DNA of 64,000 nt from an uncultured Alphaproteobacteria bacterium (GCA_902593125.1 CACJGU010000003.1:46905-110904), one strand, 5' to 3'; shown: positions 29,983 to 45,809, counted from the first letter of the stretch. Numbers and translations: made by a program. Notes: a model not told the origin generated them from the sequence alone.

Positions 29983-31261
29983 AATATTTAAAACCTAATT
30001 TTTCTAATTCTAAAGCATTATAAATATTTCTTAAATCAAAAATTTTTTTTGTTTTTACTATTTTACTTATCTCTGAAAAATTGAGTGCTCTAAATTCATT
30101 CCACTCTGTTCCAATAATAATTGCATTGGTATTATTACATGCTTCAAAAGCTGATTCAAAATATCTAAAATGATTAAACTCTTTTTTTGCATTATCCATA
30201 GCAACTGGATCAAAACAGTGTATTTGATAACCTTTTTCAAATAAATAATTTGCAAGCTTAATGGATGATGAGTCCCTTATATCATCTGTGTTAGGTTTAA
30301 AACTTAATCCTAGAAATGATATTACAGAATTATTTTTAACATGCTTCATTATCTTATCACCTATTTTGTCTATTCTTTTTTGATTAGCTTTATCAACTGC
30401 ATTGATTATAGATAAATCAATGTTAAATTTTTTTGCAGTTGAAGAAAAAGCTTTGACATCTTTTGGAAAACAAGAACCACCATATCCAGGACCAGCATTT
30501 AAAAACTTATTACCTATTCTTTGATCTATACCCATAGCCTTAGAAACATCTTGTACATTTGCGCCAACTACTTCACATAAATCTGCAATTTCATTAATAA
30601 AAGTAATTTTGGTAGCAAGAAAACTATTTGATGCATATTTAATGATCTCAGCTGTTTCAATTGATGTTGATACTATAGGCGTTTCTCTAAGATATAGTGG
30701 TCTATAAAGTTCTTTCATGATTTTTTCTGATTTTGAATTTTCACTGCCTATAACAACCCTATCTGGTCTCATAAAATCATCTATTGCTGAACCCTCTCTT
30801 AAAAATTCAGGATTGGATACAACATCAAAAAGATCTTCTGGAACTAACTTACCTATAATTTTTTTAATTTCTTTTGAGGTTCCAACAGGCACTGTTGATT
30901 TGGTTACAACTACACAATATTTTTTTATATTTTTTGCTATTTCATCTGCTACTGACCAAACATATGTTAAATCAGCATCTTCGTTTAATCTCTTGCTTGG
31001 GGTTCCTACTGTTATAAAAACTAAATCTGCATCTTTGATAGTGTCAGTTAAAGATGAAGAAAAAGATAAAAGCTTTGTTTCATTTAAATGTTTTGATAAT
31101 AAATGATCCATTCCTGGTTCATAAAATGGACATTTTCCTAATTTTAATTTTTGTATCTTTTGTATATCTTTATCAATACATATTGTTTGATACCCAAATT
31201 CAGCGAAACACGCTCCAGATACTAAACCAACATATCCTGTCCCCACTATTACCAATTTCAT
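29966..31261 (-). CDS. ugd: UDP-glucose 6-dehydrogenase
   Basis: 431 aa with Rossmann motif VGTGYVGLVSG and catalytic GGSCFPKD. Confidence 0.92.
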   Translation of the reverse strand: MKLVIVGTGYVGLVSGACFAEFGYQTICIDKDIQKIQKLKLGKCPFYEPGMDHLLSKHLNETKLLSFSSSLTDTIKDADLVFITVGTPSKRLNEDADLTYVWSVADEIAKNIKKYCVVVTKSTVPVGTSKEIKKIIGKLVPEDLFDVVSNPEFLREGSAIDDFMRPDRVVIGSENSKSEKIMKELYRPLYLRETPIVSTSIETAEIIKYASNSFLATKITFINEIADLCEVVGANVQDVSKAMGIDQRIGNKFLNAGPGYGGSCFPKDVKAFSSTAKKFNIDLSIINAVDKANQKRIDKIGDKIMKHVKNNSVISFLGLSFKPNTDDIRDSSSIKLANYLFEKGYQIHCFDPVAMDNAKKEFNHFRYFESAFEACNNTNAIIIGTEWNEFRALNFSEISKIVKTKKIFDLRNIYNALELEKLGFKYYGTGK

Positions 31262-31318
31262 TGTGATCCTATAAACCTGATTGAGATTGTATTAAATGAG
31301 AATTATTTAATTTTTTGA

Positions 31319-32338
31319 TTATTTGCAGTTATGAACTGATCCCCTATCAATTATATTTACTTCAGCAAGAAAATTATAGGTCTTGTTTTGTTTTTTATCT
31401 CTATTTAATAGTATATTTATAGCTTTTTTCCCAAGTTCTTTAACTGGAAAGGAAACCGCTGTAATTGGCGGCGTACTAAGATCTCTTACTAATGGACCAT
31501 CAAATGTAATAATGGAAATATCTTTTCCAATTTTTAAATTTAAATAGTTACAAGCTTTGATTGCACTTAATGCAGAATATTCTGTTGAGCAAATAATAGA
31601 TGTTATTTTTTTATTTCTTGATAACATATTTTTAATAATCTCAAAACTTTTCTCAGGCTCTTCAAGTTTTACTGATGCATAATAATTTTTATTGAAAGTA
31701 ATTTTATTTTTTTTTAAGATTTTTAAAAAAGAATTTTTACGTTCGCTCGCAAAATTATATTTTTCTGAGATATTTATGTACGAAATGTGCTTGTGTTTTC
31801 TTTCAATTAAGTAGTTAACTATTTTTTCAATTGCTTTTTTATTGTCTAAATCTACCCAAGAAAAATTAGAACCCTCTTTTGTTTTACCCCATGCAACATA
31901 GTTTATTTTATATTTATTTAAAAGGTCTATACGCTTATCTTTAGTTTTAATATTTTGAAGTACAATATTTTCTATTTTTTGTTCTAAAATTAATTTTTCA
32001 TATGCTTTAATTTCTTCATCTTCACTTTTTGCAAATAAAATTTGTAACTGAATACTTTCAGATAATAACTTATCAGACATCCCTGCTATAAATTGAAAAA
32101 AATTTCCTTGATTCAATGTACTGGCATTTGTTCCATAGATTGGAAGAACGTAACCAACTGTTTTAGTTCTGCCAGAAGCTAAAACACTAGCATAAGGATT
32201 TGGGCTATATTGATACTTATTAGCAAATTTTTTTACTCTTTCTCTAGTTTTTTCACTTACATCCGAATAACCTCCTAAGGCTCTAGAAACTGTAGTAATA
32301 GAAAGATCTAATTTTTTTGCCAATTCCTTAATATTCAT
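31319..32338 (-). CDS. LacI-family transcriptional regulator
   Basis: HTH region MNIKELAKKLDLSITTVSRALGGYSDVSEKTRERV, followed by a periplasmic-binding-protein-like core. I chose the start at MNIKE; the track extends 4 codons to 32350. Confidence 0.9.
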   Translation of the reverse strand: MNIKELAKKLDLSITTVSRALGGYSDVSEKTRERVKKFANKYQYSPNPYASVLASGRTKTVGYVLPIYGTNASTLNQGNFFQFIAGMSDKLLSESIQLQILFAKSEDEEIKAYEKLILEQKIENIVLQNIKTKDKRIDLLNKYKINYVAWGKTKEGSNFSWVDLDNKKAIEKIVNYLIERKHKHISYINISEKYNFASERKNSFLKILKKNKITFNKNYYASVKLEEPEKSFEIIKNMLSRNKKITSIICSTEYSALSAIKACNYLNLKIGKDISIITFDGPLVRDLSTPPITAVSFPVKELGKKAINILLNRDKKQNKTYNFLAEVNIIDRGSVHNCK

Positions 32339-32367
32339 AATAAATTGCATAACTCAGAAATAAAAAA

Positions 32368-32389
32368 TTGACAACCAAAACGTTTTGGT
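32368..32389. promoter_or_regulatory. TTGACA hexamer abutting a perfect 16-bp LacI-type palindrome (operator 1)
   Basis: TTGACA (32368..32373) is followed directly by ACCAAAACGTTTTGGT (32374..32389), which has a central CG. The site lies in the divergent spacer between the LacI-family gene and the SBP gene. Confidence 0.7.
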
Positions 32390-32427
32390 AAAGTATGATT
32401 TGTATATTTATAAATATGGAGGAATTA

Positions 32428-33738
32428 ATGAATAAATTAATTAAAATTTTATTAGCTTCTTTCACATCTTTATTTCTTAGTGTTTCGGCTTTTGCTGGAG
32501 GACATTTATATTCTGGACCAGATTTAAGTGGTCAGAAAGTTGTAATGTTTGGTCCTTGGCTTTCTCCAGAACAAGAAATAATGAGAGAGGTCGGAGCTAT
32601 ATTTGAAAAAGCTACTGGAGCAACTTTTGAGTACGGTGGATCTGATAGCTTTGAGCAACAAGTAATGATTGACTTAAAAGCTGGAAGTGCTGCTGACTTA
32701 GTAGTATTTCCTCAGCCAGGTTTAGCGGCAAATGCGGCAGCTATGGGTGGTCTGGTTCCACTTGGTGATGACATCAAACAAATGGTTTTAGATAACTATG
32801 CAGCTGGACAGTCTTGGGTTGATCTATCAACTTACGCTGACGAAAATGGAAATGATCAATTTAACGCTATCTTCTTTAGAACAAATGTTAAAAGTTTAGT
32901 TTGGTACTCTCCAGATAACTTTGAAGATAATGGATATGAAGTTCCAGCAACTATGGAAGAGCTTATTTCATTAACTAGACAAATGGCTTCTGATGGAAAT
33001 ACGCCATGGTGTATTGGTTTAGGTTCAGGTGCAGCTACAGGATGGCCAGCAACTGACTGGATGGAAGACATTATGCTAAGAACACATACTCCTGATGTTT
33101 ATGACATGTGGGTATCAAATGAAATGCCATTTAATGATCCAAGAGTAATTGAAGCTATGAATTTTTTTGGAACGTTTGCATTGAATGATGATTTTGTTAA
33201 CGGTGGTTCTAAAGCAGTTGCAACAACTGACTTTAGAGATGCTCCAAATGGACTTTTTACTTCACCGGCAGAATGTATGATGCATAGACAAGCAAGTTTT
33301 ATCCCAGCATTCTTTCCTGAAGGAGTAGAAGCAGGTGTTGACTATGATTTCTTTTATTTTCCAGCTTATGAAACAAAAGATCTTGGTACTCCAGTACTTG
33401 GAGCAGGAACTTTGGTAGCGGCTACGAATGATAATCCTGCTACTTTAGAGTTTATTAAGTTCTTAATGCATCCTGAGCCTCATGAATATTGGATGGCTAA
33501 AGGTGGCTTTTTAACACCACATAAAGGTGTTGATGGAAGCAAATATGCTAGTGAAACTTTTAGAAAACTAGGTGAAATTTTGACAGGTGCAACAACATTT
33601 AGATTTGATGCATCTGACTTAATGCCAGGCGCAATTGGTGCAGGTACATTCTGGACTGGTATGGTTGATTATACCAATGGAAAGTCTGCTCAAGATGTGG
33701 CTGATGCGATCCAAGATAGTTGGGACGCAATTAAATAA
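32428..33738 (+). CDS. CUT1-type ABC transporter periplasmic sugar-binding protein
   Basis: Start chosen at MNKLIKILLASFTSLFLSVSAFA (a signal peptide), preceded by GGAGGA. The track starts at 32395. Codon composition is noticeably more GC-rich than in neighbouring genes. Confidence 0.88.
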   Translation: MNKLIKILLASFTSLFLSVSAFAGGHLYSGPDLSGQKVVMFGPWLSPEQEIMREVGAIFEKATGATFEYGGSDSFEQQVMIDLKAGSAADLVVFPQPGLAANAAAMGGLVPLGDDIKQMVLDNYAAGQSWVDLSTYADENGNDQFNAIFFRTNVKSLVWYSPDNFEDNGYEVPATMEELISLTRQMASDGNTPWCIGLGSGAATGWPATDWMEDIMLRTHTPDVYDMWVSNEMPFNDPRVIEAMNFFGTFALNDDFVNGGSKAVATTDFRDAPNGLFTSPAECMMHRQASFIPAFFPEGVEAGVDYDFFYFPAYETKDLGTPVLGAGTLVAATNDNPATLEFIKFLMHPEPHEYWMAKGGFLTPHKGVDGSKYASETFRKLGEILTGATTFRFDASDLMPGAIGAGTFWTGMVDYTNGKSAQDVADAIQDSWDAIK

Positions 33739-33751
33739 TTCCTCTTGTTGA

Positions 33752-33788
33752 AACAGGCGAACAATTAACTTGTTCGCCTGTTTTTTTT
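33752..33788 (+). terminator. strong hairpin / attenuating terminator after the SBP gene
   Basis: AACAGGCGAACAA pairs with TTGTTCGCCTGTT around loop TTAAC, followed by a T-run. Confidence 0.85.
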
Positions 33789-33805
33789 ATATATTTACTT
33801 AATAA

Positions 33806-34789
33806 ATGGATGTCTTGAATTTATTTTTTATAGTTTTTTTAGGAATACTTTTATTCATTTTATATTTTCATATTTCAAATTCTATTTTAGATTTTTATGG
33901 AAAAAAAACTGATAGAAGATATAATTTTGAAAATTCAATCAGAGTTGTAATTTTTATTGCACCAGCTTTTATAGTCCTTTTTATATTTATTTTATATCCT
34001 GTTTTTGAAACTATTAGGCTTAGTTTTTATGATAAATTTGGAAGAGAATTTGTAGGATTCTATAATTATCGTTGGGCTGTTAATGATCCAGAATTTCAGA
34101 GAAGTATATTAAATAACTTAGGCTGGTTATTAATAGTTCCAACCTTAAGTACTTTCTTTGGTTTAGTAATAGCAAATTTAGCTGATAGAGTTTGGTGGGG
34201 ATCTATTGCAAAATCAATAATTTTTATGCCAATGGCAATTTCTTTTGTAGGAGCTGGCGTAATATGGAAATTTATTTATGAATATAGAGGACCTGGTGAT
34301 ACCCAAATTGGACTCCTAAACGCAATAATTGTTTCATTTGGATATGAACCTCAGGCTTGGCTAACAATTCCTGTTTGGAATAATGTTTTTTTGATGGCTA
34401 TAATGATTTGGATACAAACAGGTTTAGCCTTAGTTATTTTTAGTGCAGCTTTAAGAGGTATTCCAAAAGAAACATTGGAGGCAGCAAGAATTGATGGAGC
34501 TAGTGAATTTAAAATTTTTTTTTCAATTATCATACCTTATCTTGAACAAACCATTTTGGTTATTTGGACATTAATTACTATTATTGTATTAAGAATATTT
34601 GATATCATTTTTGCAATGACAAATGGTGAATGGCAAACAGGCGTATTAGCAAATTTAATGTATGATTGGATGTTTAGAGGTGGTGGTGATTCAGGAAGAG
34701 GAAGTGTTTTAGCAATTGTAATAATGATTGGTGTCATACCTATTTTGGCTTGGAATTTATATAAACATAGACAAGAACAAAAAATATAA
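33806..34789 (+). CDS. ABC sugar permease (MalF-like)
   Basis: 327 aa with EAA loop TLEAARIDGASEFKIFFSIIIPYL. Confidence 0.9.
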   Translation: MDVLNLFFIVFLGILLFILYFHISNSILDFYGKKTDRRYNFENSIRVVIFIAPAFIVLFIFILYPVFETIRLSFYDKFGREFVGFYNYRWAVNDPEFQRSILNNLGWLLIVPTLSTFFGLVIANLADRVWWGSIAKSIIFMPMAISFVGAGVIWKFIYEYRGPGDTQIGLLNAIIVSFGYEPQAWLTIPVWNNVFLMAIMIWIQTGLALVIFSAALRGIPKETLEAARIDGASEFKIFFSIIIPYLEQTILVIWTLITIIVLRIFDIIFAMTNGEWQTGVLANLMYDWMFRGGGDSGRGSVLAIVIMIGVIPILAWNLYKHRQEQKI

Positions 34790-35928
34790 TGAAAAAATTT
34801 CAAATATCATCTTTTTTATCTCAGTTATTATTACTCTTTTTTGTAATATTATGGATCATTCCAACTTTTGGACTATTCATTAGTTCCTTAAGAGATAAAG
34901 ACTTATTAGCTATTAGCGGATGGTGGACTTCACTTACAACTACAAAAGTAAATGAAATTTATAGAATGTCTGGAATGACAGAGCAAATTTTTGAAGATGG
35001 TTTTTTTGTTGTAAGGGGAAGTTTGTTTGAAGATAATTCAGGAAAAAAAATTGAAACGTTTGGAATTACATCTAAAAATATAAATGAATTTGTAGTTGGT
35101 GAAATAGCAAGTTTTAAGGACAATAGTCAAGTTACAGTAAATGAAGTTGGTGAATATATTTGGAAATCAGAAAAAGAATTTACAAAAAAGAAGGGAAAAA
35201 GACTTTTTATAACAGCTTTAAGTCCACCCTCTTTTACATTCGATAATTATAAAGAAGTATTGTTTAAAGAGGGAATTGGCCAGGCTTTTTTAAATACTAC
35301 TGCCGTAGCATTACCCTCAACATTAATACCATTAATAATATGTTCCTTTTTTGCTTATGCCCTTACTTGGATGAAATTCTTTGGAAGAGATACCTTACTA
35401 GCAGTTATTATAGCTTCGCTTGTCGTGCCTCTTCAAATGTCATTGATACCAATCCTAACAATTTATAATGATTTTGGTGCCTTATTTGGAGTTGCAGCAA
35501 AATCGTATCCTGGTGTATGGATGGCTCATACCGGTTTTGGACTGGCCTCAACAACCTTTTTATTAAGAAATTTTATAAAATCATTACCAATCGAAATGAT
35601 GGAGGCAGCAAAAGTTGATGGCGCATCTCATTATGATATTTTTTTAAGAATTATATTGCCTCTTTCTATCCCTGCATTTGCCTCTATTTTTATTTTACAA
35701 TTTTTGTGGTGCTGGAATGATCTTTTAGTTGGATTAGTATTTTTGGATCAGGTTCCAAGTGAAATAATTTTGACTGCAAAATTAAAAGAATTACTCGGTT
35801 CAAGAGGCGAAAACTGGGAAATTTTAACCACAGGTGCCTTTGTATCAATGACTGTACCTCTATTTATATTTTTTGCTTTACAGAGGTACTTCATAAGAGG
35901 TTTAGTCGCAGGTTCAGTTAAGGGATAA
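34789..35928 (+). CDS. ABC sugar permease (MalG-like, with a large periplasmic insert)
   Basis: 379 aa with EAA loop MMEAAKVDGASHYDIFLRIILPLSIP. A hydrophilic loop of about 110 aa follows TM1. The start overlaps the upstream stop. Confidence 0.88.
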   Translation: MKKFQISSFLSQLLLLFFVILWIIPTFGLFISSLRDKDLLAISGWWTSLTTTKVNEIYRMSGMTEQIFEDGFFVVRGSLFEDNSGKKIETFGITSKNINEFVVGEIASFKDNSQVTVNEVGEYIWKSEKEFTKKKGKRLFITALSPPSFTFDNYKEVLFKEGIGQAFLNTTAVALPSTLIPLIICSFFAYALTWMKFFGRDTLLAVIIASLVVPLQMSLIPILTIYNDFGALFGVAAKSYPGVWMAHTGFGLASTTFLLRNFIKSLPIEMMEAAKVDGASHYDIFLRIILPLSIPAFASIFILQFLWCWNDLLVGLVFLDQVPSEIILTAKLKELLGSRGENWEILTTGAFVSMTVPLFIFFALQRYFIRGLVAGSVKG

Positions 35929-35957
35929 ATTAAAAAAAAAGTTTATTTTTTTTAATT

Positions 35958-36986
35958 TTGAATTATTTCTGTAATATGAATAGTATGAATAATCAAACTT
36001 CCATTAATAATGTTTCTGGTGAATGGTTTAAACCAGAAATTGACAAAAAAACACTTAAAAACCTCTCAAAAAGAAGTGATTTTGAGGGTTGGAAACATAT
36101 TATTATATTTTTTTCTGCCTTATCAAGTTTGGGACTTCTATCAGTTTATTTTTGGAATACGTGGTTCTTTGTTTTATTTTATCTTGCATACTGTACAGTT
36201 TGGGGAGGAGCAGATGCTATCTGGCATGAATGTGGTCATCGTACTGCATTTAAGACAAGAAGAATAAATGATTTTTTTTACAACATAGCTAGTTTTATGA
36301 ATAACTTTGAGCCCGTGAGATGGAGATGGAGTCACTCATTGCATCACAGTTATACAGCATCTCTTGATCCTCACGATTATGAAGTAGATGGAAGCATTTT
36401 TGCGAAACACACTCTTTTGAGTTTTTTAATTGGTTTCTTACCAGGTATTAATCTCCTTACTCTGCACAAATCCCTTCACTTAGAAATAATTAAACATGCC
36501 CTTGGTATTAATACTAAAGTTATGGTCGATTGTATTCCTGAAGATCAAAGATCTAAGTGTATTACTAGTTCAAGAATATTTGTATTTTTATGGATAGCGA
36601 TATTGCTATCTGGCATTTTAACCAATTCTATTTTACCTATACTATTATTTTTACTTCCAACTTTTTTTAGAAGTCTTAATATGATTTGGGGACTAACTCA
36701 GCACATGGGTTTAAAAGAAGATACAAAAGATCACAGAGAGTCAACTAGATCTGTTAGATTGAATCCTATATTTAGTTTTATATATTGGAAAATGGAATAC
36801 CATATTGAGCATCATATGTTTCCAATGGTCCCTTCATATAACCTACCGAAACTTTATGAAGTAATTAAAGATCAACTCCCAAAACCTCAAACACTGTTTG
36901 AAGCTTATAAAGAGATTATACCTGCTGTAATTAAAAAATCAAAAAATCCTGAATATTATATACCTGTTAAATTATCTAATAGTTAA
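35958..36986 (+). CDS. membrane di-iron fatty-acid-desaturase-family protein (desaturase/hydroxylase, PF00487-type histidine boxes)
   Basis: Three His boxes are present: HECGHR, HSLHHSY and HIEHHMFP. There are several TM segments. The track start is TTG at 35958; an ATG at 35976 is an alternative. Confidence 0.8.
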   Translation: MNYFCNMNSMNNQTSINNVSGEWFKPEIDKKTLKNLSKRSDFEGWKHIIIFFSALSSLGLLSVYFWNTWFFVLFYLAYCTVWGGADAIWHECGHRTAFKTRRINDFFYNIASFMNNFEPVRWRWSHSLHHSYTASLDPHDYEVDGSIFAKHTLLSFLIGFLPGINLLTLHKSLHLEIIKHALGINTKVMVDCIPEDQRSKCITSSRIFVFLWIAILLSGILTNSILPILLFLLPTFFRSLNMIWGLTQHMGLKEDTKDHRESTRSVRLNPIFSFIYWKMEYHIEHHMFPMVPSYNLPKLYEVIKDQLPKPQTLFEAYKEIIPAVIKKSKNPEYYIPVKLSNS

Positions 36987-36996
36987 ACTATTAATA

Positions 36997-37026
36997 TTGA
37001 CATTAAAAAATTATTTAGTTTAAAAT
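36997..37026 (+). promoter_or_regulatory. candidate sigma70-type promoter upstream of the aldehyde dehydrogenase gene
   Basis: TTGACA (36997..37002), an 18-nt spacer, then TAAAAT (37021..37026). In AT-rich DNA such matches can arise by chance. Confidence 0.35.
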
Positions 37027-37057
37027 ACATTAATTACTTTTTTCGGAGGTTGACAAA

Positions 37058-38494
37058 GTGGAACTTAGAAATTTTATTAATGGCCAATTTATAGATTCTA
37101 TTTCAAAAAAAAATATAGATGTGATTAATCCAGCTAATCAAGAACTGGTTGGTAAAATTAATCAAGGATTAGAAGATGAAATTCATTTAGCATACCAAGC
37201 TGCTAGAAAAGCTTTTCAAAAAAGAATTCTTATAGATATGGATCCCAAAAAGAAATCAAAAATAATGCGCGCAATAGCATCAAAACTTAGAGAATACAAA
37301 CATGAGGGTGGTAAGCTTTTAAGTAAAGAAAATGGAAAGACTATAACACAGTGTGAGGGAGAATTTAACGGAGCCGCTGATACTTTTGATTATTATGCTG
37401 GCATGACAGATAAAATTGAAAACAAACTAATTCCTTCAGGAAGTGATACTTTTAATTATGTAGTCTTAGAGCCTTTTGGAGTAACACTACAAATTGTTCC
37501 ATGGAACTATCCAGTTTCAATTTTTGCGAGTATGGTTGCTCAAAATTTAATTGTTGGGAATACAATTATAATAAAACCTCCTGAACTATGTCCAATTTCT
37601 TCAAATCTTTATGGTAGAATATTTCAAGAAGTAGGATTGCCTGATGGTGTTGTAAATATAATTCATGGATATGGTGAAATTACTGGAAGAAAGTTAGTTC
37701 AAAATAAAGAATGTGATTACATCGTATTCACTGGGTCTCCTGAGGTTGCTTCTGAAATACTAAAGGAAACTGCAGATAGAATTATTCCATGTCATTTTGA
37801 GTTAGGAGGAAAATCAGCAGCAATAATTTATCCTGATGCAGATATTGATAAAGCGGTAGACAGCACAATTAAAGGAATTTTTAAACCAAATGCAGGTCAA
37901 ATATGTGTGGCAATGTCGAGAGTAATAATTCATCCTAAAGTGAAAGATGAATATATGACAAAATTAGTATCTAAAACAAAAGAATTAAAAATTGGAGCTG
38001 GAGATAACTCATCTACCGAGGTTACACCTCTTATTTCAAAAGAACAAATTAAGAGAGTGTCAAATTATGTTAAATCAGGTGTTCAGTCTGGTGCAACATT
38101 GACTCTTGGAGGAGAAGAATTAGAAATTGGTAAAGGTAATTATTACCTTCCAACAATTTTTGATAATGTTGATAAAGAATCAACTATAGCGCAGGAAGAA
38201 ATATTTGGTCCTGTTACATCTATTTTTGATTTTGAAGATAATGAACAGGCTATTGAAATAGCAAACTCTACAAATTATGGATTAGCTTCAGGCGTATTTA
38301 CTTCTAATGACCAAAAGGCAAAGTGGACTGCAGAAAGAATAAATGCAGGAATTATCTGGCAAAATGATTGGTTTGTTGATGGAGTTAATCTTCCTGGTGG
38401 AGGTTATAAAAGATCTGGTTATGGGCGTGATGGAGGCATTGATGGAATTTATAGTCATGGCCAAACAAAAAGAATTAGTAAGCGACTAAAATAA
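37058..38494 (+). CDS. NAD(P)+-dependent aldehyde dehydrogenase
   Basis: 478 aa (GTG start) with the catalytic Glu context FELGGKSA, the Cys context AGQICVAMSR, and VPWNYP. Confidence 0.9.
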   Translation: MELRNFINGQFIDSISKKNIDVINPANQELVGKINQGLEDEIHLAYQAARKAFQKRILIDMDPKKKSKIMRAIASKLREYKHEGGKLLSKENGKTITQCEGEFNGAADTFDYYAGMTDKIENKLIPSGSDTFNYVVLEPFGVTLQIVPWNYPVSIFASMVAQNLIVGNTIIIKPPELCPISSNLYGRIFQEVGLPDGVVNIIHGYGEITGRKLVQNKECDYIVFTGSPEVASEILKETADRIIPCHFELGGKSAAIIYPDADIDKAVDSTIKGIFKPNAGQICVAMSRVIIHPKVKDEYMTKLVSKTKELKIGAGDNSSTEVTPLISKEQIKRVSNYVKSGVQSGATLTLGGEELEIGKGNYYLPTIFDNVDKESTIAQEEIFGPVTSIFDFEDNEQAIEIANSTNYGLASGVFTSNDQKAKWTAERINAGIIWQNDWFVDGVNLPGGGYKRSGYGRDGGIDGIYSHGQTKRISKRLK

Positions 38495-38525
38495 CTAATA
38501 TTTTTTGAATTACTCAATGTTTTGC

Positions 38526-38547
38526 TTGACATCCAAAACGTTTCGGA
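38526..38547. promoter_or_regulatory. TTGACA hexamer abutting the LacI-type palindrome (operator 2)
   Basis: TTGACA (38526..38531) is followed directly by TCCAAAACGTTTCGGA (38532..38547), with one asymmetric position. The architecture is the same as operator 1. Confidence 0.65.
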
Positions 38548-38593
38548 TTTTATTTTAATAACAATAAATACAATTAATTTTAGGGAGGATTAA

Positions 38594-39589
38594 ATGAAAT
38601 TAATTAAAATTTTACTAATATCTGTTTTATTTATCCCTTTATCTTTTCAATCTTATGCAGCTCCAACTGGTCAGGATTTGGGAGATAAATGGTGTTCTGA
38701 TGTAAAAATGCATTTTTATGCAGGTGGGCCTGAAGCAGGTGGATTTGCAGGAATTGTAGCTGCAGGTGCAATGAATGCAATTAGAGATACTGGTGCTGAT
38801 GCAGAGATTATCTATTCAGAATGGGATTTTGAAAAAATGGTTCGTCAATTAAGAGAGTCTGTAGGTCTTGGTGTAGATGCTATTGCAATGATGGGTCATC
38901 CTGGTGATGAAGCTCTTATGCCATTAGCAAGAGAGGCCGCTGACAAAGGTATATTGATGACTTATCAAAATGTTGATCCATCAGGAGTTAGAGCAAAATA
39001 TGGTGGCGGATATGTTGGAGCTAATCTTGCTACTCAAGGAAAAGCATTAGCAAGAGAAGCTATAAGACAGTTTGGATTTCAAGCAGGCGATCATGCAATA
39101 GTTATGGTTCCAATTGGAGATTACGCTAGAGCTCAAAGAGAAGATGGTGCAAGAATAATTTTTGAAGAGCACGGTATGACTGTTACAGTTTTAGATGGAG
39201 ATCCAAAATATGCTTCAGATCCAAACATGACTATTCCAATTTTTTCTGCAGCATTAAATGCTAACCCTGAAACAAAAGTTATTGTTCATTCTGGAAGTGA
39301 TATTATGAATGTAGCTGAAGGAATTGCAAAAGCAGCTGGGTATGGACCTAATGAATTATTACAAATTGGTTTCGATACTAGTCCACAAATTATGTCATCC
39401 TTTGAAAAAGGCTATGTTCATCTAACTTCAGATCAACAACCGTTTTTACAAGGTTATTTACCCGTACTTTCTTTATGTCAAACCGCTGTTCTTGGAACAG
39501 GTGCGATAAATCAAGATACTGGTGCAGGATTTGTTGATACTAACAACTATCAAGCTGTAAAAGCACTTGCAGACGCAGGTCTAAGATAA
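38594..39589 (+). CDS. CUT2-type (ribose/fructose-like) periplasmic sugar-binding protein
   Basis: 331 aa with signal peptide MKLIKILLISVLFIPLSFQSYA. The composition is type I PBP-like. A single-domain ATPase gene and a single RbsC-like permease gene follow. Confidence 0.82.
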   Translation: MKLIKILLISVLFIPLSFQSYAAPTGQDLGDKWCSDVKMHFYAGGPEAGGFAGIVAAGAMNAIRDTGADAEIIYSEWDFEKMVRQLRESVGLGVDAIAMMGHPGDEALMPLAREAADKGILMTYQNVDPSGVRAKYGGGYVGANLATQGKALAREAIRQFGFQAGDHAIVMVPIGDYARAQREDGARIIFEEHGMTVTVLDGDPKYASDPNMTIPIFSAALNANPETKVIVHSGSDIMNVAEGIAKAAGYGPNELLQIGFDTSPQIMSSFEKGYVHLTSDQQPFLQGYLPVLSLCQTAVLGTGAINQDTGAGFVDTNNYQAVKALADAGLR

Positions 39590-39600
39590 TATTAACTCGA

Positions 39601-39633
39601 ACTGACTCATTCAATAATGAGTCAGTTTTTTTT
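39601..39633 (+). terminator. hairpin / attenuating terminator after the SBP gene
   Basis: ACTGACTCATT pairs with AATGAGTCAGT around loop CAAT, followed by T8. Confidence 0.8.
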
Positions 39634-39637
39634 ACTT

Positions 39638-40384
39638 ATGGAAAATATCATTGAATTAAATAAAGTTACAAAAAAATTTGGGGGTATAACAGCCTTAAAT
39701 AAAGCATCTCTACATGTAAAAAAAGGTGAAGTTGTAGGACTAATTGGAGATAATGGAGCTGGTAAATCAACTCTAATTAAAACTTTAGTTGGCGTGTATA
39801 GCCCAGATGAGGGTGATATAATAATAAGAGGTAAAGAGGTTAACTCATGGAATGCCCTTAAAGCTAGAGAGGCTGGTATAGAAACAGTTTTTCAAGATAG
39901 AGCTTTAACACCTCAGCAATCTATTGTTAAAAATATTTTTATGGGAAAAGAGTTAAGATATCCTTTTGGTTTTATTAAAGAAAAAAAACAAATAAATGAA
40001 GCTAATAGACTAATTAGAGAAATAGGATTTACTTCAAAACTTATTAATGCTGAATCTGCTGTAGGAAATCTATCAGGGGGAGAAAGGCAAGGTGTTGCCA
40101 TTGCGAGAGCAATTTATAACAATGCAGAATTAATCGTATTGGACGAACCAACAAATAATTTGTCCTTAAATGAAACACAAAAAGTTTTTGATTTTGTATT
40201 GAACGTAAAAAAATCAAATAGATCTGTACTGTTTATAGGTCATAACATTTATCATGTTTACGACATTTCAGACAGATTTGTTATACTAGATAGAGGTGAA
40301 GTAGTTCATGAATTAAATAAAGAGAATGTATCTTCTCCAGAAGAATTAATGAAAATAATGAGACAAACAATAATAAGTCACTGA
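39638..40384 (+). CDS. ABC transporter ATP-binding protein (single ABC domain, FrcA-like)
   Basis: Walker A GDNGAGKST, signature LSGGERQGVAIARA, Walker B LIVLDEPTNNL. The start was moved to MENIIELNKV because the track start at 39617 lies inside the terminator stem. Confidence 0.88.
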   Translation: MENIIELNKVTKKFGGITALNKASLHVKKGEVVGLIGDNGAGKSTLIKTLVGVYSPDEGDIIIRGKEVNSWNALKAREAGIETVFQDRALTPQQSIVKNIFMGKELRYPFGFIKEKKQINEANRLIREIGFTSKLINAESAVGNLSGGERQGVAIARAIYNNAELIVLDEPTNNLSLNETQKVFDFVLNVKKSNRSVLFIGHNIYHVYDISDRFVILDRGEVVHELNKENVSSPEELMKIMRQTIISH

Positions 40385-40391
40385 TAAAAAT

Positions 40392-41366
40392 ATGAATAAT
40401 AACAAATCATTTATAACTAATATGTTTCATAAAAATGGAAGAGCTCTTGGAAGTATTGGGTATTTTACTTTACTTATGGCTATTTTTTTAATTGGAGCTC
40501 CGGAAGCATGGATTAGACCAAATTTACATCAATCTGTTTTTGTAATGATGCCAACATTAATTTTTTTAACTATTCCTCTTGTTTTTCTAGTAGCTTCAGG
40601 AGAAATAGATTTATCTTTTGCATCCACTTATGCAGTTGCTGCTTATGTTTTTGCTTTATTAGTTAAAAATGGTGTAGACCCTGCAATTTGTTTCGTCGCA
40701 GGAGTCTTTACTGGTGCTGCTATTGGGGCATTAGTTGGAACTTTAATAGTTGTTTTTCGTTTATCATCACTTGTTGCCTCTTTGGGCGTTTTGTTTCTAT
40801 TGAGAGGTGTAATTTTACTTTTAACAAAAAGTCGATCAATAACGATAATGGAAGTTGAAAATCACTGGATTTATCCTCTATTAGTAGGAAAATTTTATGG
40901 TTTCCCTATGCAAATTTTTTGGGCAGCGCTATTTGTAATTTTTTGTTACTATTTTTTTAATAAACATGTTTTTGGAATTCATATACAACATGTTGGTGAT
41001 AATTCAGTGAGCGCTGAGCAGATGGGCATTAATGTAAGTGCTGTAAAAATTAAAGCTTTTATGTTTGTTGGTATCGGTGCTGCCTTAGGTGGGATTTTTA
41101 CTACATTGATTACATACACTTTTTTTCCTACGCAAGGTTTTGGCTATTTACTTTTAGCTCTGGCTGCAGTTTTTGTAGGAGGAACCCCTTACTGGGGTGG
41201 ATTAGGAACAATTATTGGTGCTGTTTTTGGAGTTGGAGTTATTGCCTATATGGAAATTGGCATCATAGCAATTGGATGGAGTGGAGAATGGAGGCAGTTT
41301 TTTAATGGCTTAATAATTTTACTTGCTTTATTAGGACATAGGCTGCATGGAGAAAGGGTTAGATAA
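40392..41366 (+). CDS. ABC sugar permease (RbsC/FrcC-like)
   Basis: 324 aa with about 9-10 TM segments. The Gly/Ala-rich helices are typical of CUT2 permeases. Confidence 0.85.
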   Translation: MNNNKSFITNMFHKNGRALGSIGYFTLLMAIFLIGAPEAWIRPNLHQSVFVMMPTLIFLTIPLVFLVASGEIDLSFASTYAVAAYVFALLVKNGVDPAICFVAGVFTGAAIGALVGTLIVVFRLSSLVASLGVLFLLRGVILLLTKSRSITIMEVENHWIYPLLVGKFYGFPMQIFWAALFVIFCYYFFNKHVFGIHIQHVGDNSVSAEQMGINVSAVKIKAFMFVGIGAALGGIFTTLITYTFFPTQGFGYLLLALAAVFVGGTPYWGGLGTIIGAVFGVGVIAYMEIGIIAIGWSGEWRQFFNGLIILLALLGHRLHGERVR

Positions 41367-41368
41367 GA

Positions 41369-42688
41369 ATGGTTAAAATTGTTTTAATTGGTGCGGGAAG
41401 TTCGCAATTTGGATTAGGTACTGTAAGTGATATATTTAAATCTGAAACTTTAAAAAATTGTAATATTACACTTCATGATATTAACGAGAAAGCTCTTGAA
41501 AAAACAAGAGCTACTGCTGAGAAATATAAAAATGATTTTAATGCAAATTGTATTATAGACGCTACAACAAATCGAAGAGATGCTTTAAAAAATGCAGATT
41601 ATTGCCTAATTTCAATTGAAGTAGGAAATAGGTTTGAACTTTGGGATCAAGATTGGAAAATACCACTTCAGTATGGTTTTAAACAAATTTATGGTGAAAA
41701 CGGAGGTCCTGGCGGCCTATTTCATTCATTAAGAATCACGCCTGCAATTTTAGATATATGTGAAGATATTCATGAAATATGCCCTGATGCTTTTGTTTTT
41801 AATTACTCAAATCCAATGCAAAGAATATGTCATGCAGTTACAACAAAATTCCCTGATTTAAAATTTATTGGATTATGTCATGAAATTGCATCGATGGAAC
41901 GCCAATTACCAACTCTAATGGAAACTGAGTTTTCAAATATTGAAATCAAAGCAGGTGGACTTAATCACTTTAGTATTTTGCTAGAAGCAAAATATAAAGA
42001 TACTAAAAAAGATGGCTACCCAATAATTAGAGAGAAATTTGATAAATATTACTCTTCTCTAATTAATGAACATGATGATTATCATAAATCAAAGCCAGGT
42101 GGAGAAAGAGGTGTATTTTTTGAATTATATAAAACATATGGTTACTTACCTATAACAACAGATAGTCATTTAGGCGAATACCTACAGTGGGGTTATAGTG
42201 TAGCTGATCATGATGCAATTTCTCACTTTTATAATCAATACAAAGAACATTGTTTATCTTTTCATAGTGATAAAGTTTCAAAAGAACATTTTTTTGATAC
42301 AAAAGATACAACCGCAAGGGAAAGGATAATTCCTATAATAGAATCAATAATTGAAGATAAGAATATGATTGAAGATGCAGTTAATGTACCTAATAATAAT
42401 TTTATTGATAGCCTTCCAAATGATATTGTTGTTGAAGTTCCTGCAGTTATTAATAAAGATGGGATACATGGGCAGCGATTAGAAAATTATCCTTCTAAAT
42501 TTGGAGCACTATTAAATAATCAAGCAAGTACCATACAGCTAACTACAGATGCTGTGTTAAATAAATCTAAGCATAGTGTGTATTTAGCTTTACTTGCAGA
42601 TCCTATTGTTGATAATGTTGCTTCTGCTGAGAAACTAATAGAAACAATGGTAGAATTTCAAAAAGAATATTTAGGATATTTAAATTAG
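41369..42688 (+). CDS. glycoside hydrolase family 4 (NAD+/Mn2+-dependent glycosidase)
   Basis: 439 aa with N-terminal Rossmann KIVLIGAGSSQFG, NYSNPMQRI, and the GLCHE Cys-His metal motif. The gap to the permease gene is 2 nt. Confidence 0.85.
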   Translation: MVKIVLIGAGSSQFGLGTVSDIFKSETLKNCNITLHDINEKALEKTRATAEKYKNDFNANCIIDATTNRRDALKNADYCLISIEVGNRFELWDQDWKIPLQYGFKQIYGENGGPGGLFHSLRITPAILDICEDIHEICPDAFVFNYSNPMQRICHAVTTKFPDLKFIGLCHEIASMERQLPTLMETEFSNIEIKAGGLNHFSILLEAKYKDTKKDGYPIIREKFDKYYSSLINEHDDYHKSKPGGERGVFFELYKTYGYLPITTDSHLGEYLQWGYSVADHDAISHFYNQYKEHCLSFHSDKVSKEHFFDTKDTTARERIIPIIESIIEDKNMIEDAVNVPNNNFIDSLPNDIVVEVPAVINKDGIHGQRLENYPSKFGALLNNQASTIQLTTDAVLNKSKHSVYLALLADPIVDNVASAEKLIETMVEFQKEYLGYLN

Positions 42689-42761
42689 ATCTTGCTCTAA
42701 ATTTTATAATTATATAATATAAAAATACTTACACTTGTAAGATCGCTCAAAGGAGGATGAA

Positions 42762-43841
42762 GTGGCAGATATAAATATAAACACAGTTAACAAATACTTT
42801 GGGGATGTTCATGTAATAAAAGACATTTCCCTAGATATTAAAAGTCAATCTTTTACAGTTTTAGTAGGACCAAGTGGATGCGGAAAATCAACTATGCTTA
42901 GAATGATAGCGGGTTTAGAAGATATTAACTCTGGAACAATTTCAATTGACGGACAAATTGTTAATGACTTACCACCTAAGCAAAGAAATATTGCAATGGT
43001 GTTCCAATCATATGCATTATATCCACACATGACTGTCTTCGATAATATGGCATTTGGTTTAAAGTTAGAAAAACGATCAAAAGATGAAATTAATGATCGT
43101 GTTAATGAAGCTGCAAGAATTTTGCAAATTGAAGATTATCTCAAAAGAAAACCAAAACAACTATCAGGTGGACAAAGACAAAGAGTAGCAATAGGAAGAG
43201 CTATTACTAGAAAACCAAAAGTTTTCCTATTTGATGAGCCTCTTTCAAATTTAGATGCAGCTTTAAGAGTTCAAATGAGAGTTGAGTTAGCTAAACTTCA
43301 TAATGAATTAGAGGCTACTATGATATATGTAACTCATGATCAAACTGAAGCAATGACTCTTGCTGATGATATTGTAGTTTTGGACACAGGTATAGTGTCT
43401 CAAAAAGGATCTCCGATGGATTTATATAAAAATCCAAATAACATGTTTGTAGGTGGTTTTATTGGTTCTCCAAAAATGAATTTTATAAATACAAAAATTA
43501 CTAGCAAAAGTAATAATTCAACAGAGGTCGACATTCTTGGGAGTTCAAAAATTTCTGTACCTAAATTATCAGCTTCAGCATCTGAAGGTGATAATGTTAC
43601 ATTAGGAATTAGACCAGAAGACCTTCTTGTAAATCAAGAATCTGACGGATCATGGGAGAGCAAGGTATTTGTTGTCGAAAAGTTGGGTTCAGGAACATTT
43701 CTTTATCTTGAAAAGGATGGGGAGCCACTAGTTGTTGAGACTGAAGGTAATTCTAATATTAAAGTGGGTGATTCAGTTAAAGTTGGTTTTCCATCAGATA
43801 GATGTCATCTTTTTGATAGCTCAAATCAAGCATTTAAATAA
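42762..43841 (+). CDS. MalK/UgpC/MsiK-type ABC sugar-transport ATPase with a C-terminal regulatory (TOBE-like) domain
   Basis: 359 aa (GTG start, preceded by AAGGAGGA) with GPSGCGKST, LSGGQRQRVAIGRA and FLFDEPLSNLD. Confidence 0.92.
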   Translation: MADININTVNKYFGDVHVIKDISLDIKSQSFTVLVGPSGCGKSTMLRMIAGLEDINSGTISIDGQIVNDLPPKQRNIAMVFQSYALYPHMTVFDNMAFGLKLEKRSKDEINDRVNEAARILQIEDYLKRKPKQLSGGQRQRVAIGRAITRKPKVFLFDEPLSNLDAALRVQMRVELAKLHNELEATMIYVTHDQTEAMTLADDIVVLDTGIVSQKGSPMDLYKNPNNMFVGGFIGSPKMNFINTKITSKSNNSTEVDILGSSKISVPKLSASASEGDNVTLGIRPEDLLVNQESDGSWESKVFVVEKLGSGTFLYLEKDGEPLVVETEGNSNIKVGDSVKVGFPSDRCHLFDSSNQAFK

Positions 43842-43851
43842 GAAGAATCGT

Positions 43852-43895
43852 AACACTAATTATCTGTAAATTTAGAGGTAATTAGTGTTTTTTTT
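43852..43895 (+). terminator. rho-independent terminator
   Basis: AACACTAATTA pairs with TAATTAGTGTT around a 16-nt loop, followed by T8. Confidence 0.8.
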
Positions 43896-43939
43896 GGAGC
43901 TTTAATTACATTTAATTAAATTAAAATAGAATAGAAAAT

Positions 43940-44004
43940 GGTAGAGAGTTTTTTGATATTATTTCCTCCTATAAGAAGTATTCCTCTTATAAAAATTCTC
44001 TACC
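43940..44004 (-). terminator. long imperfect hairpin downstream of the glpD-like gene
   Basis: Outer stem 43940..43953 pairs with 43991..44004 (14 positions, one of which is G:T). Inner stem 43971..43978 pairs with 43983..43990. On the minus strand the structure is followed by ATTTTCTATTCTATTTT. Confidence 0.45.
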
Positions 44005-44023
44005 TCGTTTTACAATAAAAATT

Positions 44024-45175
44024 TTATAACTTTTCTTTATGAGTCCAAGGATAAAGAATTTTTTTATTTAGATATGGTTTAAGATAATTTAAAACACTTT
44101 CAGAGAGTTTTCTATAGGTAGTAAGTTTGCCTCCATATATATTTAATAAAGGTGCAAAAGAATTATTTATATTAAGATCAAAAATGTAATCTCTTGTTAC
44201 TTTTGATGCTTCTTTGTAATCCTCAATTAATGGTCTCACACCTGAATAGGTATCTAAAATATCATCATTTTTTATTTGTTTTTTAAAAAATTTATTAATA
44301 GTGTTAATTAAATATATTATTTCAGATTGCTCAATTTTTGGATTTTCAGGTGAATGTACCTCAATTTCAGTAGTGCCAATAAGTGAATATTCTTGTTTAA
44401 AAGGAATTACAAAAACTACCCTATTATCTTCATTTTGCAAAGTAAATGCATAGTTTTGATCATAAAGTTTTTTTGTAATTATATGACTTCCTTTTACCAA
44501 TCTTATTTCTTTTTTTGATTTTATTTTAATTATATCTTTTAAAACATTATTAATCCAAGGCCCTGTTGCATTTATTAATATTTTTGATTTTAAAATTTTT
44601 TGGTTACTTAATTTGATTATCCAATAATTTTTTTCTCTTTTTACCTCAATAATTTTTTGGTTTTCAATTATTAATGCTCCCTTTTTTTTAGCATCATTTA
44701 TATTTAATTCGACAAGTTTTTTATCATCTACTTGTAAATCATAATATTGAAAACCTTCTTTAAAATTACTTTTAAGAATATTTGGTATTATTTTTTGAAT
44801 ATTAATTTTTTTTGATTTTGGAAATGAAGATTTACCACCTAAACGATCATACAAAAATAAACCAATTTTAATAATCCATTTAGATCTTTGTGATGGTAGG
44901 TGGGGAATAATAAATGGCAATGGTCTGACTATATCTTGGGCAATAAATTTTATAATTTCTCTCTCCTTTAAAGATTCTCTAACTAATTTAAATTCAAAGT
45001 TTTCAAGATATCTTAATCCTCCATGAATTAGTTTTGTTGACCATGAAGAAGTAGCTGAGCCAATATTATTTTTTTCTATTAAACAAACTTTTATTTTTCT
45101 ACCAGCGGCATCTCTAGCTATACCTGCTCCATTTATACCTCCACCAATAATTATAATATCAAAAATACTATCCAT
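44024..45175 (-). CDS. glpD: FAD-dependent glycerol-3-phosphate dehydrogenase-like protein lacking the C-terminal domain
   Basis: 383 aa with DIIIIGGGINGAGIARDAAGR, KLIHGGLRYLE and GGKLTTYRKL. It ends about where the GlpD C-terminal helical domain would begin. Confidence 0.78.
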   Translation of the reverse strand: MDSIFDIIIIGGGINGAGIARDAAGRKIKVCLIEKNNIGSATSSWSTKLIHGGLRYLENFEFKLVRESLKEREIIKFIAQDIVRPLPFIIPHLPSQRSKWIIKIGLFLYDRLGGKSSFPKSKKINIQKIIPNILKSNFKEGFQYYDLQVDDKKLVELNINDAKKKGALIIENQKIIEVKREKNYWIIKLSNQKILKSKILINATGPWINNVLKDIIKIKSKKEIRLVKGSHIITKKLYDQNYAFTLQNEDNRVVFVIPFKQEYSLIGTTEIEVHSPENPKIEQSEIIYLINTINKFFKKQIKNDDILDTYSGVRPLIEDYKEASKVTRDYIFDLNINNSFAPLLNIYGGKLTTYRKLSESVLNYLKPYLNKKILYPWTHKEKL

Positions 45176-45186
45176 TAATTATTTCC

Positions 45187-45777
45187 CTAAATGTACTTGT
45201 TAATTTCTGAAGTTATTAATTCAGGGTTATTTAAATGTATAGTCTTAAAACCAAGTCTTTGAGCTGTATTAATATTTTCTATTTTATCATCAATAAATAC
45301 TGTTTCTTTTGGAATAAGATTAAAGCGAGAAATAGCGAGATTATAAATTTCTTTGTTAGGTTTAATCATTTTCTCATTTCCAGAAATTATTAAATCATCA
45401 AATAATTTTAAAAATGGAAAATCTTTCTCCATTCCTATGAATGTTTCCCATGACCAATTAGATAAAACATAACACTCATATTGTTTTAATTTTAGATTCT
45501 TTAGTATTTTAACTGATTCATCAAATATTCCGCGAAACATTTTACGATGATTTTTGTAATACATTATAATTTCTTGTTTAAAATTAGGATGCTTAATAAC
45601 TAGTTCATTTTCAGCATCTTTTATTAATCTACCTCTATCCTGCTCTATATTCCAAGCATCATTACATATATTTTTGAGAAAATATTCTCTTTCATGTTTA
45701 TTTTTAATTATTTCTTTATAAAAATGATTTGGGTCCCAATCAAAAAAGACACCTCCTAAGTCAAAAAGAAATTTCAT
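45187..45777 (-). CDS. HAD-superfamily hydrolase
   Basis: 196 aa with motif I FDLGGVFFDW and motif IV VFIDDKIENI. Confidence 0.72.
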   Translation of the reverse strand: MKFLFDLGGVFFDWDPNHFYKEIIKNKHEREYFLKNICNDAWNIEQDRGRLIKDAENELVIKHPNFKQEIIMYYKNHRKMFRGIFDESVKILKNLKLKQYECYVLSNWSWETFIGMEKDFPFLKLFDDLIISGNEKMIKPNKEIYNLAISRFNLIPKETVFIDDKIENINTAQRLGFKTIHLNNPELITSEINKYI

Positions 45778-45809
45778 GTATAAATATTTTGTTTATAAAT
45801 ATATTTTAA

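Follow-up and report, generated by a model that had tools for sequence, protein, structure and literature searches.

In rhizobia, AglEFGAK and ThuEFGK are trehalose, maltose and sucrose systems (PMC3518184). The LacI-family regulators of these loci, AglR and ThuR, form sister groups, and their operator motifs have been published as nnntcAAAGCGCTTTgannn and natcnAAAnCGnTTTngatt, respectively (PMC4052901). In the same survey, 1173 of 1303 motifs of LacI-family transcription factors (LacI-TFs) combined an even length with a CG centre, and operators were described as even palindromes with a central CG that lie 30-140 bp upstream of the target start. Here, we analysed a stretch of 64,000 nucleotides from an uncultured alphaproteobacterium (GCA_902593125.1, CACJGU010000003.1:46905-110904), hereafter the window, in which a LacI-family gene stands next to two ABC transporter loci of classes CUT1 and CUT2, each with a short palindrome, O1 and O2, upstream of its first gene. 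The source was treated as SAR11-type on the basis of its GC content (~28%), 13 marine single-cell relatives (uncultured Alphaproteobacteria) and a 78%-identical homologue of its substrate-binding protein (SBP) named Pelagibacteraceae. We conclude with good confidence that both palindromes are operators for the adjacent AglR-like repressor, each placed in the spacer of a putative sigma-70-type promoter, where a bound dimer would exclude RNA polymerase until a sugar or glycoside acts as inducer.

Results

Two TTGACA-abutting palindromes precede two transporter operons

A sequence-only reading of the window had described both palindromes, and direct inspection confirmed their positions. O1 (ACCAAAACGTTTTGGT), a perfect 16-bp palindrome, falls within the 89 nt that separate the LacI-family gene from the CUT1 SBP gene. 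O2 (TCCAAAACGTTTCGGA) contains one asymmetric pair and ends 46 nt upstream of the ATG of the CUT2 SBP gene at 38594. Both are immediately preceded by TTGACA (Table 1). The centres of O1 and O2 are located 46 and 54 nt upstream of the respective SBP start codons, and both sites thus show the even length, central CG and distance that are described for LacI-TF operators.

Allowing up to two mismatches, the two sites are the sole matches to TTGACA plus palindrome in the window, and the motif CCAAAACGTTTYGG yields four strand-matches, all of which stem from them. Shuffled versions of the window contained 0.63 matches on average and none of 100 shuffles reached four, which argues against an occurrence at random frequency. 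Across 325 kb of related sequence, the mismatch spectrum was bimodal, with 20 perfect sites (0.0008 expected), five sites with one mismatch (0.04 expected), one with two mismatches (0.9 expected) and 27 with three (12 expected), the latter mostly within coding sequence. As these loci are homologous, the counts gauge conservation and do not represent independent events.

Conservation of site 1 and promoter geometry

To compare site 1 between loci, we aligned the lacI-SBP intergenic region of the window with that of 13 genomic loci and the metagenome contig L065 (n = 15; related loci and fragments carry L numbers). The mean column identity of this alignment is 47%. Within it, the block ATTGAC(A/T)ACCAAAACGTTTTGG is invariant at 21 of 22 columns in all 15 loci, the exception being a single A/T position. 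The regulators of related loci are 54-86% identical to that of the window, and the 14-bp core of O1 is unchanged in L065, where the regulator is 57% identical, as well as in L141-L143 (54%).

The arrangement at the CUT1 promoter, P1, is equally fixed and consists of TTGAC(A/T), 1 nt, the 14-bp core, 2 nt and an AAnTAT-type hexamer. This A/T-rich hexamer follows TTGAC(A/T) after 17 nt in every locus, reads AAATAT, AATTAT, AAGTAT, AAAAAT or TTTAAT with A2 and T6 kept, and is the candidate -10 element. Judged by this geometry, the operator would fill the 17-nt promoter spacer between the -35 and the candidate -10 element, and a dimer bound there would be expected to exclude RNA polymerase. The proposal that TTGACA acts as a separate -35 element is supported by its constant offset, by the hexamer that follows and by its survival as TTGACAT at loci from which the operator is missing (see below). 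Likewise, the invariance of site 1, its even length, CG centre and typical distance to the start codon agree with the view that the palindromes behave as LacI-family operators.

In the lineage of L065 and L141-L143, P1 contains a second operator copy centred 24-25 bp downstream of the first, over the expected transcription start (L065:7225-7290; L141:8930-8975). While L141-L143 show a perfect tandem copy, that of L065 contains an additional A.

The regulator and the CUT1 transporter resemble AglR and AglEFG-K

In PurR, the leucine L54 of the hinge helix inserts at the central CpG of the operator. The regulator of the window aligns end to end (residues 2-335) with PurR, its nearest solved structure (E = 4.5e-25), and its hinge 'ASVLAS' falls on 'ARSLAV' of PurR, so that its leucine matches L54; L53 is invariant in an alignment of six regulators. 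The helix-turn-helix (HTH) domain was detected with PF00356 (residues 2-47, E = 1.7e-10, 40.9 bits with a cut-off of 27) and the effector domain with PF13377 (E = 5e-21) and PF00532. By HTH, effector domain and hinge leucine, the protein classifies as a member of the LacI/GalR family.

The CUT1 SBP shares 58-65% identity with SBPs encoded in agl-type loci of S. meliloti and several roseobacters, and homologues with 98% and 70% identity bear the JGI name 'alpha-glucoside transport system substrate-binding protein'. These agl-type loci encode a divergent regulator, SBP, two permeases, an alpha-glucosidase and UgpC, which is the aglR/aglEFGAK layout. The window block has the arrangement of the AglR group as well, with a divergent regulator, an aglE-type SBP, two permeases and a terminal MalK/UgpC-type ATPase. 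Moreover, the best homologues of the regulator among 3110 plasmid records are those encoded divergently from AglE-like SBP genes (30-35% identity), and the top matches of regulator and SBP are neighbours in the same records. Intergenic regions of agl-type loci (L014, L015, L136) contain two TCAAAGCGCTTTGA-type sites each, which match the published AglR motif, and the roseobacter site TCAAAACGCTTTGG (L136) is intermediate between the AglR type and the SAR11 core CCAAAACGTTTTGG. On this comparative evidence, we regard the regulator and the CUT1 transporter as the equivalents in SAR11 of the AglR and AglEFG-K known from rhizobia and roseobacters, and the SAR11 operator as belonging to the AglR/ThuR motif family with a shift towards A/T.

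A search against solved structures returned only distant matches for both SBPs (E 1e-11 or weaker), namely AcbH and an XOS-binding protein for the CUT1 SBP and CUT2 monosaccharide binders for the CUT2 SBP. Hence, neither is close kin of a crystallised SBP, including any SAR11 protein among these such as SAR11_0769, which is glucose-binding (PMC11485210).

Four loci of a more distant marine lineage, with a 70%-identical SBP and a GC content of 37% (L137-L140), are organised as GH1 divergent from SBP-permease-permease-GH4-malK-PFK-GSDH. They are devoid of a CCAAAACGTTTTGG site, carry TGTAACAG direct repeats upstream of the SBP gene and encode their LacI protein in a different operon at a distance of 6 kb. 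They give no guidance on how the operator evolved.

The second operator precedes exchangeable cassettes

Synteny mapping revealed a constant frame of the regulator divergent from SBP-permease-permease, followed by a variable block and malK, which occurs in four states. In the window, L001, L003, L008 and the fragment L081, the block consists of a fatty acid desaturase-family gene (FAdes), an aldehyde dehydrogenase gene (aldh), the promoter-operator P2/O2 and the CUT2 transporter, with (GH4) before malK. O2 is present in all five of these loci or fragments with no or one mismatch and at an unchanged offset from TTGACA or TTGACT; in the window it deviates from the consensus by one base, a C variant shared with L003. 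In L002, L004 and L005, an antisense Rieske and/or flavodoxin gene is followed by a promoter-operator region, a ThuA-like gene, a Gfo/Idh/MocA oxidoreductase gene and malK, and the O2-type site of L002 is perfect. The operator therefore recurs before two unrelated cassettes, CUT2 with GH4 and the ThuAB type. In the third state, a ThuA-like gene stands gapless behind the second permease gene and the second operator is missing (L007, L012, L065). In the fourth, the permease gene is directly followed by malK and the FAdes-aldh-CUT2 module is found beyond the regulator gene (L006, L011, L013). The module is relocated in L065 too, where it still carries CTTGACAT plus CCAAAACGTTTTGG.

This distribution bears on the proposal that one regulon spans both ABC loci. 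The CUT1 system has no ATPase gene other than the terminal malK, so that the second unit carries a subunit which the first unit needs, and co-regulation of the two units makes sense. A link between them is accordingly reasonable, but membership of the CUT2 genes in the regulon is specific to certain lineages. The further claim that all genes serve one substrate class is not supported, as the block between permease and malK can be exchanged (FAdes-aldh-CUT2-GH4, ThuA/ThuB or nothing) and the aldehyde dehydrogenase gene has a promoter-like site of its own without an operator (36997-37026).

It may be speculated that the permease-malK interval is a dedicated slot in which a portable cTTGAC(A/T)-CCAAAACGTTTYGG-A(T/A)TT element wires any cassette (CUT2 plus GH4, ThuAB) to one repressor, and that this wiring is lost when a cassette leaves the slot. 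We put this forward as a tentative idea that is rather less probable than not. If true, regulated and derepressed variants (with the wiring lost in L006, L011 and L013 and decaying in L004 and L005) would coexist naturally within SAR11 populations, and the locus would offer a concrete example of how transcriptional control is acquired and discarded within the flexible gene pool of a streamlined genome.

Upstream of the GTG start of malK (42730-42764), a block of ~30 nt, CACTTG(A/T)AAGATCGCTCAAAGGAGGATGAAGTG, is nearly invariant whatever gene precedes it. It also occurs in L002, L004-L007, L009, L011-L013 and L065, with a short hairpin of differing sequence just before it, and delimits the variable cassette slot on its right-hand side. 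Two loci in which thuAB directly follows the permease contain a hybrid palindrome, CCAAAGCGTTTTGG, with one AglR-like half, right after the malK terminator hairpin (L012:3332-3345, L065:674-687). This palindrome may act as an auxiliary operator at a distal position, or may be a relic.

Possible autoregulation of the repressor

The sequence-only reading had also assumed that the repressor controls its own gene. The centre of O1 lies ~43 nt upstream of the lacI ATG, and the sole -35-like element for lacI, TTGTCA (the reverse of TGACAA), is located downstream of O1. Since O1 is thus upstream of any plausible lacI -35 element, it does not hold a classic repressing position and repression at this site is uncertain. 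On the other hand, autoregulation has been predicted for 72% of LacI-TFs (PMC4052901), and deletion of thuR in Ensifer aridi derepresses thuR and thuE and raises thuR promoter activity (PMC8877191). By analogy, autoregulation of lacI is plausible.

The minus strand upstream of lacI (window 32339-32374) is without a Shine-Dalgarno sequence and shows TTGTCA, 17 nt, TAT(G/T)CA (TATGCA in the window), 7-8 nt and ATG, which hints at a leaderless lacI mRNA with its -35 element just downstream of O1. A GAATAACT.A.AAATAA motif upstream of the regulator gene is conserved across loci.

Proposed regulation of the locus

Taken together, these observations suggest the following model. Without inducer, a repressor dimer would sit between the -35 and -10 elements of both P1 and P2 and block RNA polymerase. 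Release from the operators would be triggered by a sugar or glycoside, probably of the alpha-glucoside type. P1/O1 would then drive the AglE-like SBP and both permeases together with the first genes of the cassette, and P2/O2 would restart regulated transcription within the block towards the CUT2 transporter, GH4 and finally the MalK-type ATPase. A second regulated promoter would be needed because malK is cut off from the permease genes by the inserted cassette, which in some states contains antisense genes or an operator-less promoter of its own (TTGACA-18-TAAAAT). Where thuA directly follows the permease, no second operator is found.

Gene content of the sugar block

The features of the block are listed in Table 1.

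Table 1 Features of the regulator gene, promoters, operators and sugar transport block. Positions are counted from the first nucleotide of the window.
Feature	Position	Strand	Evidence or remark
LacI-family repressor gene (AglR-like), 339 aa, MNIKELAKKL start	31319..32338	-	LacI HTH, Peripla_BP_1, Peripla_BP_3 (Pfam)
TTGACA, -35 of P1 (CUT1 operon)	32368..32373	+	TTGAC(A/T) invariant in 15/15 loci, fixed 1-nt offset to core
Operator O1 ACCAAAACGTTTTGGT, core 32375-32388	32374..32389	.	Perfect palindrome; core invariant in 15/15, flanks vary
Candidate -10 AAGTAT, 17 nt past -35	32391..32396	+	A2/T6 kept across loci; putative
CUT1 SBP gene, AglE-like	32428..33738	+	SBP_bac_1/8; GGAGG before ATG at 32428
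Strong terminator-like hairpin past SBP gene, probable attenuator or stabiliser	33750..33784	+	15-bp stem, then T-run
Two CUT1 permease genes, AglF/AglG-like	33806-34789, 34789-35928	+	BPD_transp_1; NCBIfam GlcT/GlcU, UgpA/E, MalF/G-type
FA_desaturase-family membrane di-iron enzyme, first cassette gene	35958..36986	+	PF00487, E = 3e-35; presence and position vary between loci
Promoter-like TTGACA-18-TAAAAT upstream of aldehyde dehydrogenase gene	36997..37026	+	11/12 consensus; no palindrome after it
Aldehyde dehydrogenase, cassette gene	37058..38494	+	PF00171, E = 5e-147
TTGACA, -35 of internal promoter P2	38526..38531	+	TTGACA/TTGACT at same offset in L001, L003, L008, L065, L081
Operator O2 TCCAAAACGTTTCGGA, core 38533-38546, one mismatch	38532..38547	.	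Same site before CUT2 SBP gene in L001, L003, L008, L065, L081
CUT2-type transporter: SBP, ATPase, permease	38594-39589, 39617-40384, 40392-41366	+	Peripla_BP_4, ABC_tran, BPD_transp_2
GH4 glycosidase	41369..42688	+	Glyco_hydro_4 and C-terminal domain; NCBIfam alpha-galactosidase subfamily 288 bits, below cut-off
MalK/UgpC-type ATPase, AglK-like, CUT1 energy subunit	42762..43841	+	ABC_tran, OB_MalK, TOBE_2
Terminator hairpin with T-run closing the block	43852..43897	+	AACACTAATTA...TAATTAGTGTT, then T8

The malK gene is always the last of the block and its product is 90-94% identical across loci. For the CUT2-type components, the nearest NCBIfam models are of rhizopine, ribose and allose type, all below cut-off. 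SBP and permease fit the CUT2 class, the usual ATPase of which is a fused protein of ~500 aa with two nucleotide-binding domains (NBDs); the ATPase encoded here has a single NBD and 255 aa and matches only the first half of the ~500-aa RbsA, AraG and XylG models. Terminator-like hairpins are found downstream of both SBP genes.

The FA_desaturase-family di-iron enzyme and the aldehyde dehydrogenase (35958-38494 in the window; see also L001:2534-6349, L002:4323-4631 and L005:5544-6402) suggest an oxidative pathway, to which cassettes of relatives add flavodoxin, Rieske ferredoxin and a PanB-like ketopantoate hydroxymethyltransferase homologue. The GC content of the sugar block (32000-44000) is 0.31-0.34 and that of its flanks 0.24-0.29. 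In the interval that separates the malK terminator from the glpD stop codon, the minus strand (43945-44010) contains a conserved structured element, GGTAGAGA...AAGAGGAATACTTCTTATAGGAGGAAATAAT...TCTCTACC (-20 kcal/mol, z = -3.2), which is retained in L002, L005, L006, L012 and L065 and has no Rfam match.

Discussion

Weighing the alternatives

Several findings weigh against the view that both palindromes are operators of an AglR-like repressor. The -10 elements are weak, with AAGTAT matching TATAAT at 3/6 positions and an ambiguous hexamer at P2 (TTTATT or TATTTT), and a consensus promoter scan listed neither P1 nor P2. The regulator is only ~30-35% identical to the regulators in AglR position of rhizobia and roseobacters, the SAR11 core matches the AglR motif at 10/14 positions, and the window block contains no gene of the alpha-amylase family, such as the GH13 alpha-glucosidase gene aglA, but GH4 instead. 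Motif occurrence was scanned in the window and in related loci with flanks of up to 10 kb. Finally, O2 is not universal and its retention is lineage-specific. The site has lost its central CG in L004 (CCAAAATGATTTGG), is reduced to the right half-site in L005, and no longer precedes the CUT2 SBP gene of L006, L011 and L013, in which TTGACAT is retained. The latter shows that the -35 element and the operator are separable. Together with the mismatch in the window, this decay and loss speak for weaker selection on O2 than on O1 and could mean that O1 alone functions, the copy at 38532-38547 being a relic of cassette exchange, carried along or in decay, that has little effect on regulation in this genome; CUT2, GH4 and malK would then be transcribed by read-through or constitutively. 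We nevertheless judge this improbable, because O2 has no or one mismatch in six loci or fragments, including L065 with its divergent regulator and displaced module, because the C variant of the window recurs in L003 and because the -35 offset is exactly that of O1.

It is more doubtful still that another LacI-family protein or a global carbon regulator encoded elsewhere binds the palindromes. Motifs with a AAACGTTT core are common to several LacI-TF groups, including PurR, PckR (TNNAANCGNTT) and ThuR, and the identical 14-mer occurs in many unrelated taxa: a metagenome scan with CCAAAACGTTTTGGV listed mostly unrelated high-GC contigs, with L065 and L081 as the only SAR11-like ones among the matches listed. 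However, 13 of 120 unrelated metagenome stretches among these matches carry the 14-mer no more than 400 nt from where a LacI-family gene has its 5' end, which favours a LacI-family operator. Moreover, the regulator gene stands beside O1 in every locus that has the site, regulator, SBP and operator are arranged in synteny with AglR loci, and SAR11-type genomes are generally known to have few regulators. Hardly any weight remains for a structural role of the palindromes, be it as a terminator or attenuator hairpin or as a recombination site at a cassette boundary. Their symmetry, the similar CCAAAGCGTTTTGG that L012 and L065 carry behind their malK terminator hairpin and the position of O2-type sites at cassette boundaries would fit such a role. 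Yet the RNA hairpins predicted for them are weak and do not exceed shuffled sequences in stability (-4.8 and -2.5 kcal/mol, z = -1.0 and -0.3), for which reason we rejected the RNA-structure reading. The sites also lie between the -35 and the candidate -10 element, hence upstream of the expected transcription start, they are not followed by a T-run, and the locus contains no recombinase gene. An Rfam search of 30000-46000 matched no family. We therefore retain the interpretation of O1 and O2 as operators of the adjacent repressor.

Probable repression in the SAR11 flexible genome

SAR11 bacteria are commonly described as having few regulators and a largely constitutive expression of transporters (see also Clifton et al.). 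SAR11 has also been noted for limited regulation of transporter genes (PMC11485210). A literature search for a SAR11 LacI regulon of this kind met with no prior description among the papers covered, and Pelagibacter is not mentioned in PMC4052901. The locus would provide a clean and testable example of a classical repressor-operator switch within the flexible genome of SAR11, with a defined operator and promoter geometry. It comes with natural variants, i.e. single or tandem operators at P1 and a second operator that is intact, decayed or absent, which could be used in metatranscriptomes or in heterologous reporters. The comparison further re-labels the CUT1 system as AglEFG-K-like and indicates that its enzyme partner differs by strain (GH4 or ThuAB), which bears on the algal and cyanobacterial glycosides used by SAR11 ecotypes. 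To the mechanism of LacI-family regulation itself, the locus adds nothing new.

Comparison with known systems

The closest described system is AglR-aglEFGAK of S. meliloti and Rhodobacterales (RegPrecise AglR regulog; PMC4052901), which has the same divergent LacI-family regulator and the same order of SBP, two permeases and, at the end, a MalK/UgpC ATPase. The operators of both are even palindromes with a central CG and an AAA.CG.TTT core, whereas the window has CCAAAACGTTTTGG instead of TCAAAGCGCTTTGA, with a shift to A/T at positions +/-2. The lineage of the window has one operator in the proposed -35/-10 spacer of an 89-nt gap, in contrast to the two sites in a gap of ~270-320 nt of agl loci. 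Moreover, agl loci encode the GH13 enzyme AglA, in place of which SAR11 loci have the variable cassette (GH4 or ThuA/ThuB-like) with a second promoter-operator before it.

ThuR-thuEFGKAB of rhizobia, which serves trehalose and sucrose isomers, is likewise controlled by a local LacI-family repressor. As far as can be read from motif and gene content, it resembles the SAR11 loci in that the ThuR motif (PMC4052901) is compatible with the SAR11 core and in that a ThuA plus Gfo/Idh/MocA (ThuB-like) pair forms the alternative cassette in L002, L004, L005, L007, L012 and L065. The gene order differs, with the ATPase gene last and the thuAB-like genes before it, and the window itself is without thuAB. 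PurR shares the LacI fold and the hinge leucine but differs as a global, co-repressor-dependent purine regulator from the regulator of a local sugar transport locus. In this comparison, the locus is an ordinary local LacI-family repressor-operator switch of the AglR/ThuR type, the sole unusual feature of which is that it controls a cassette-swap slot.

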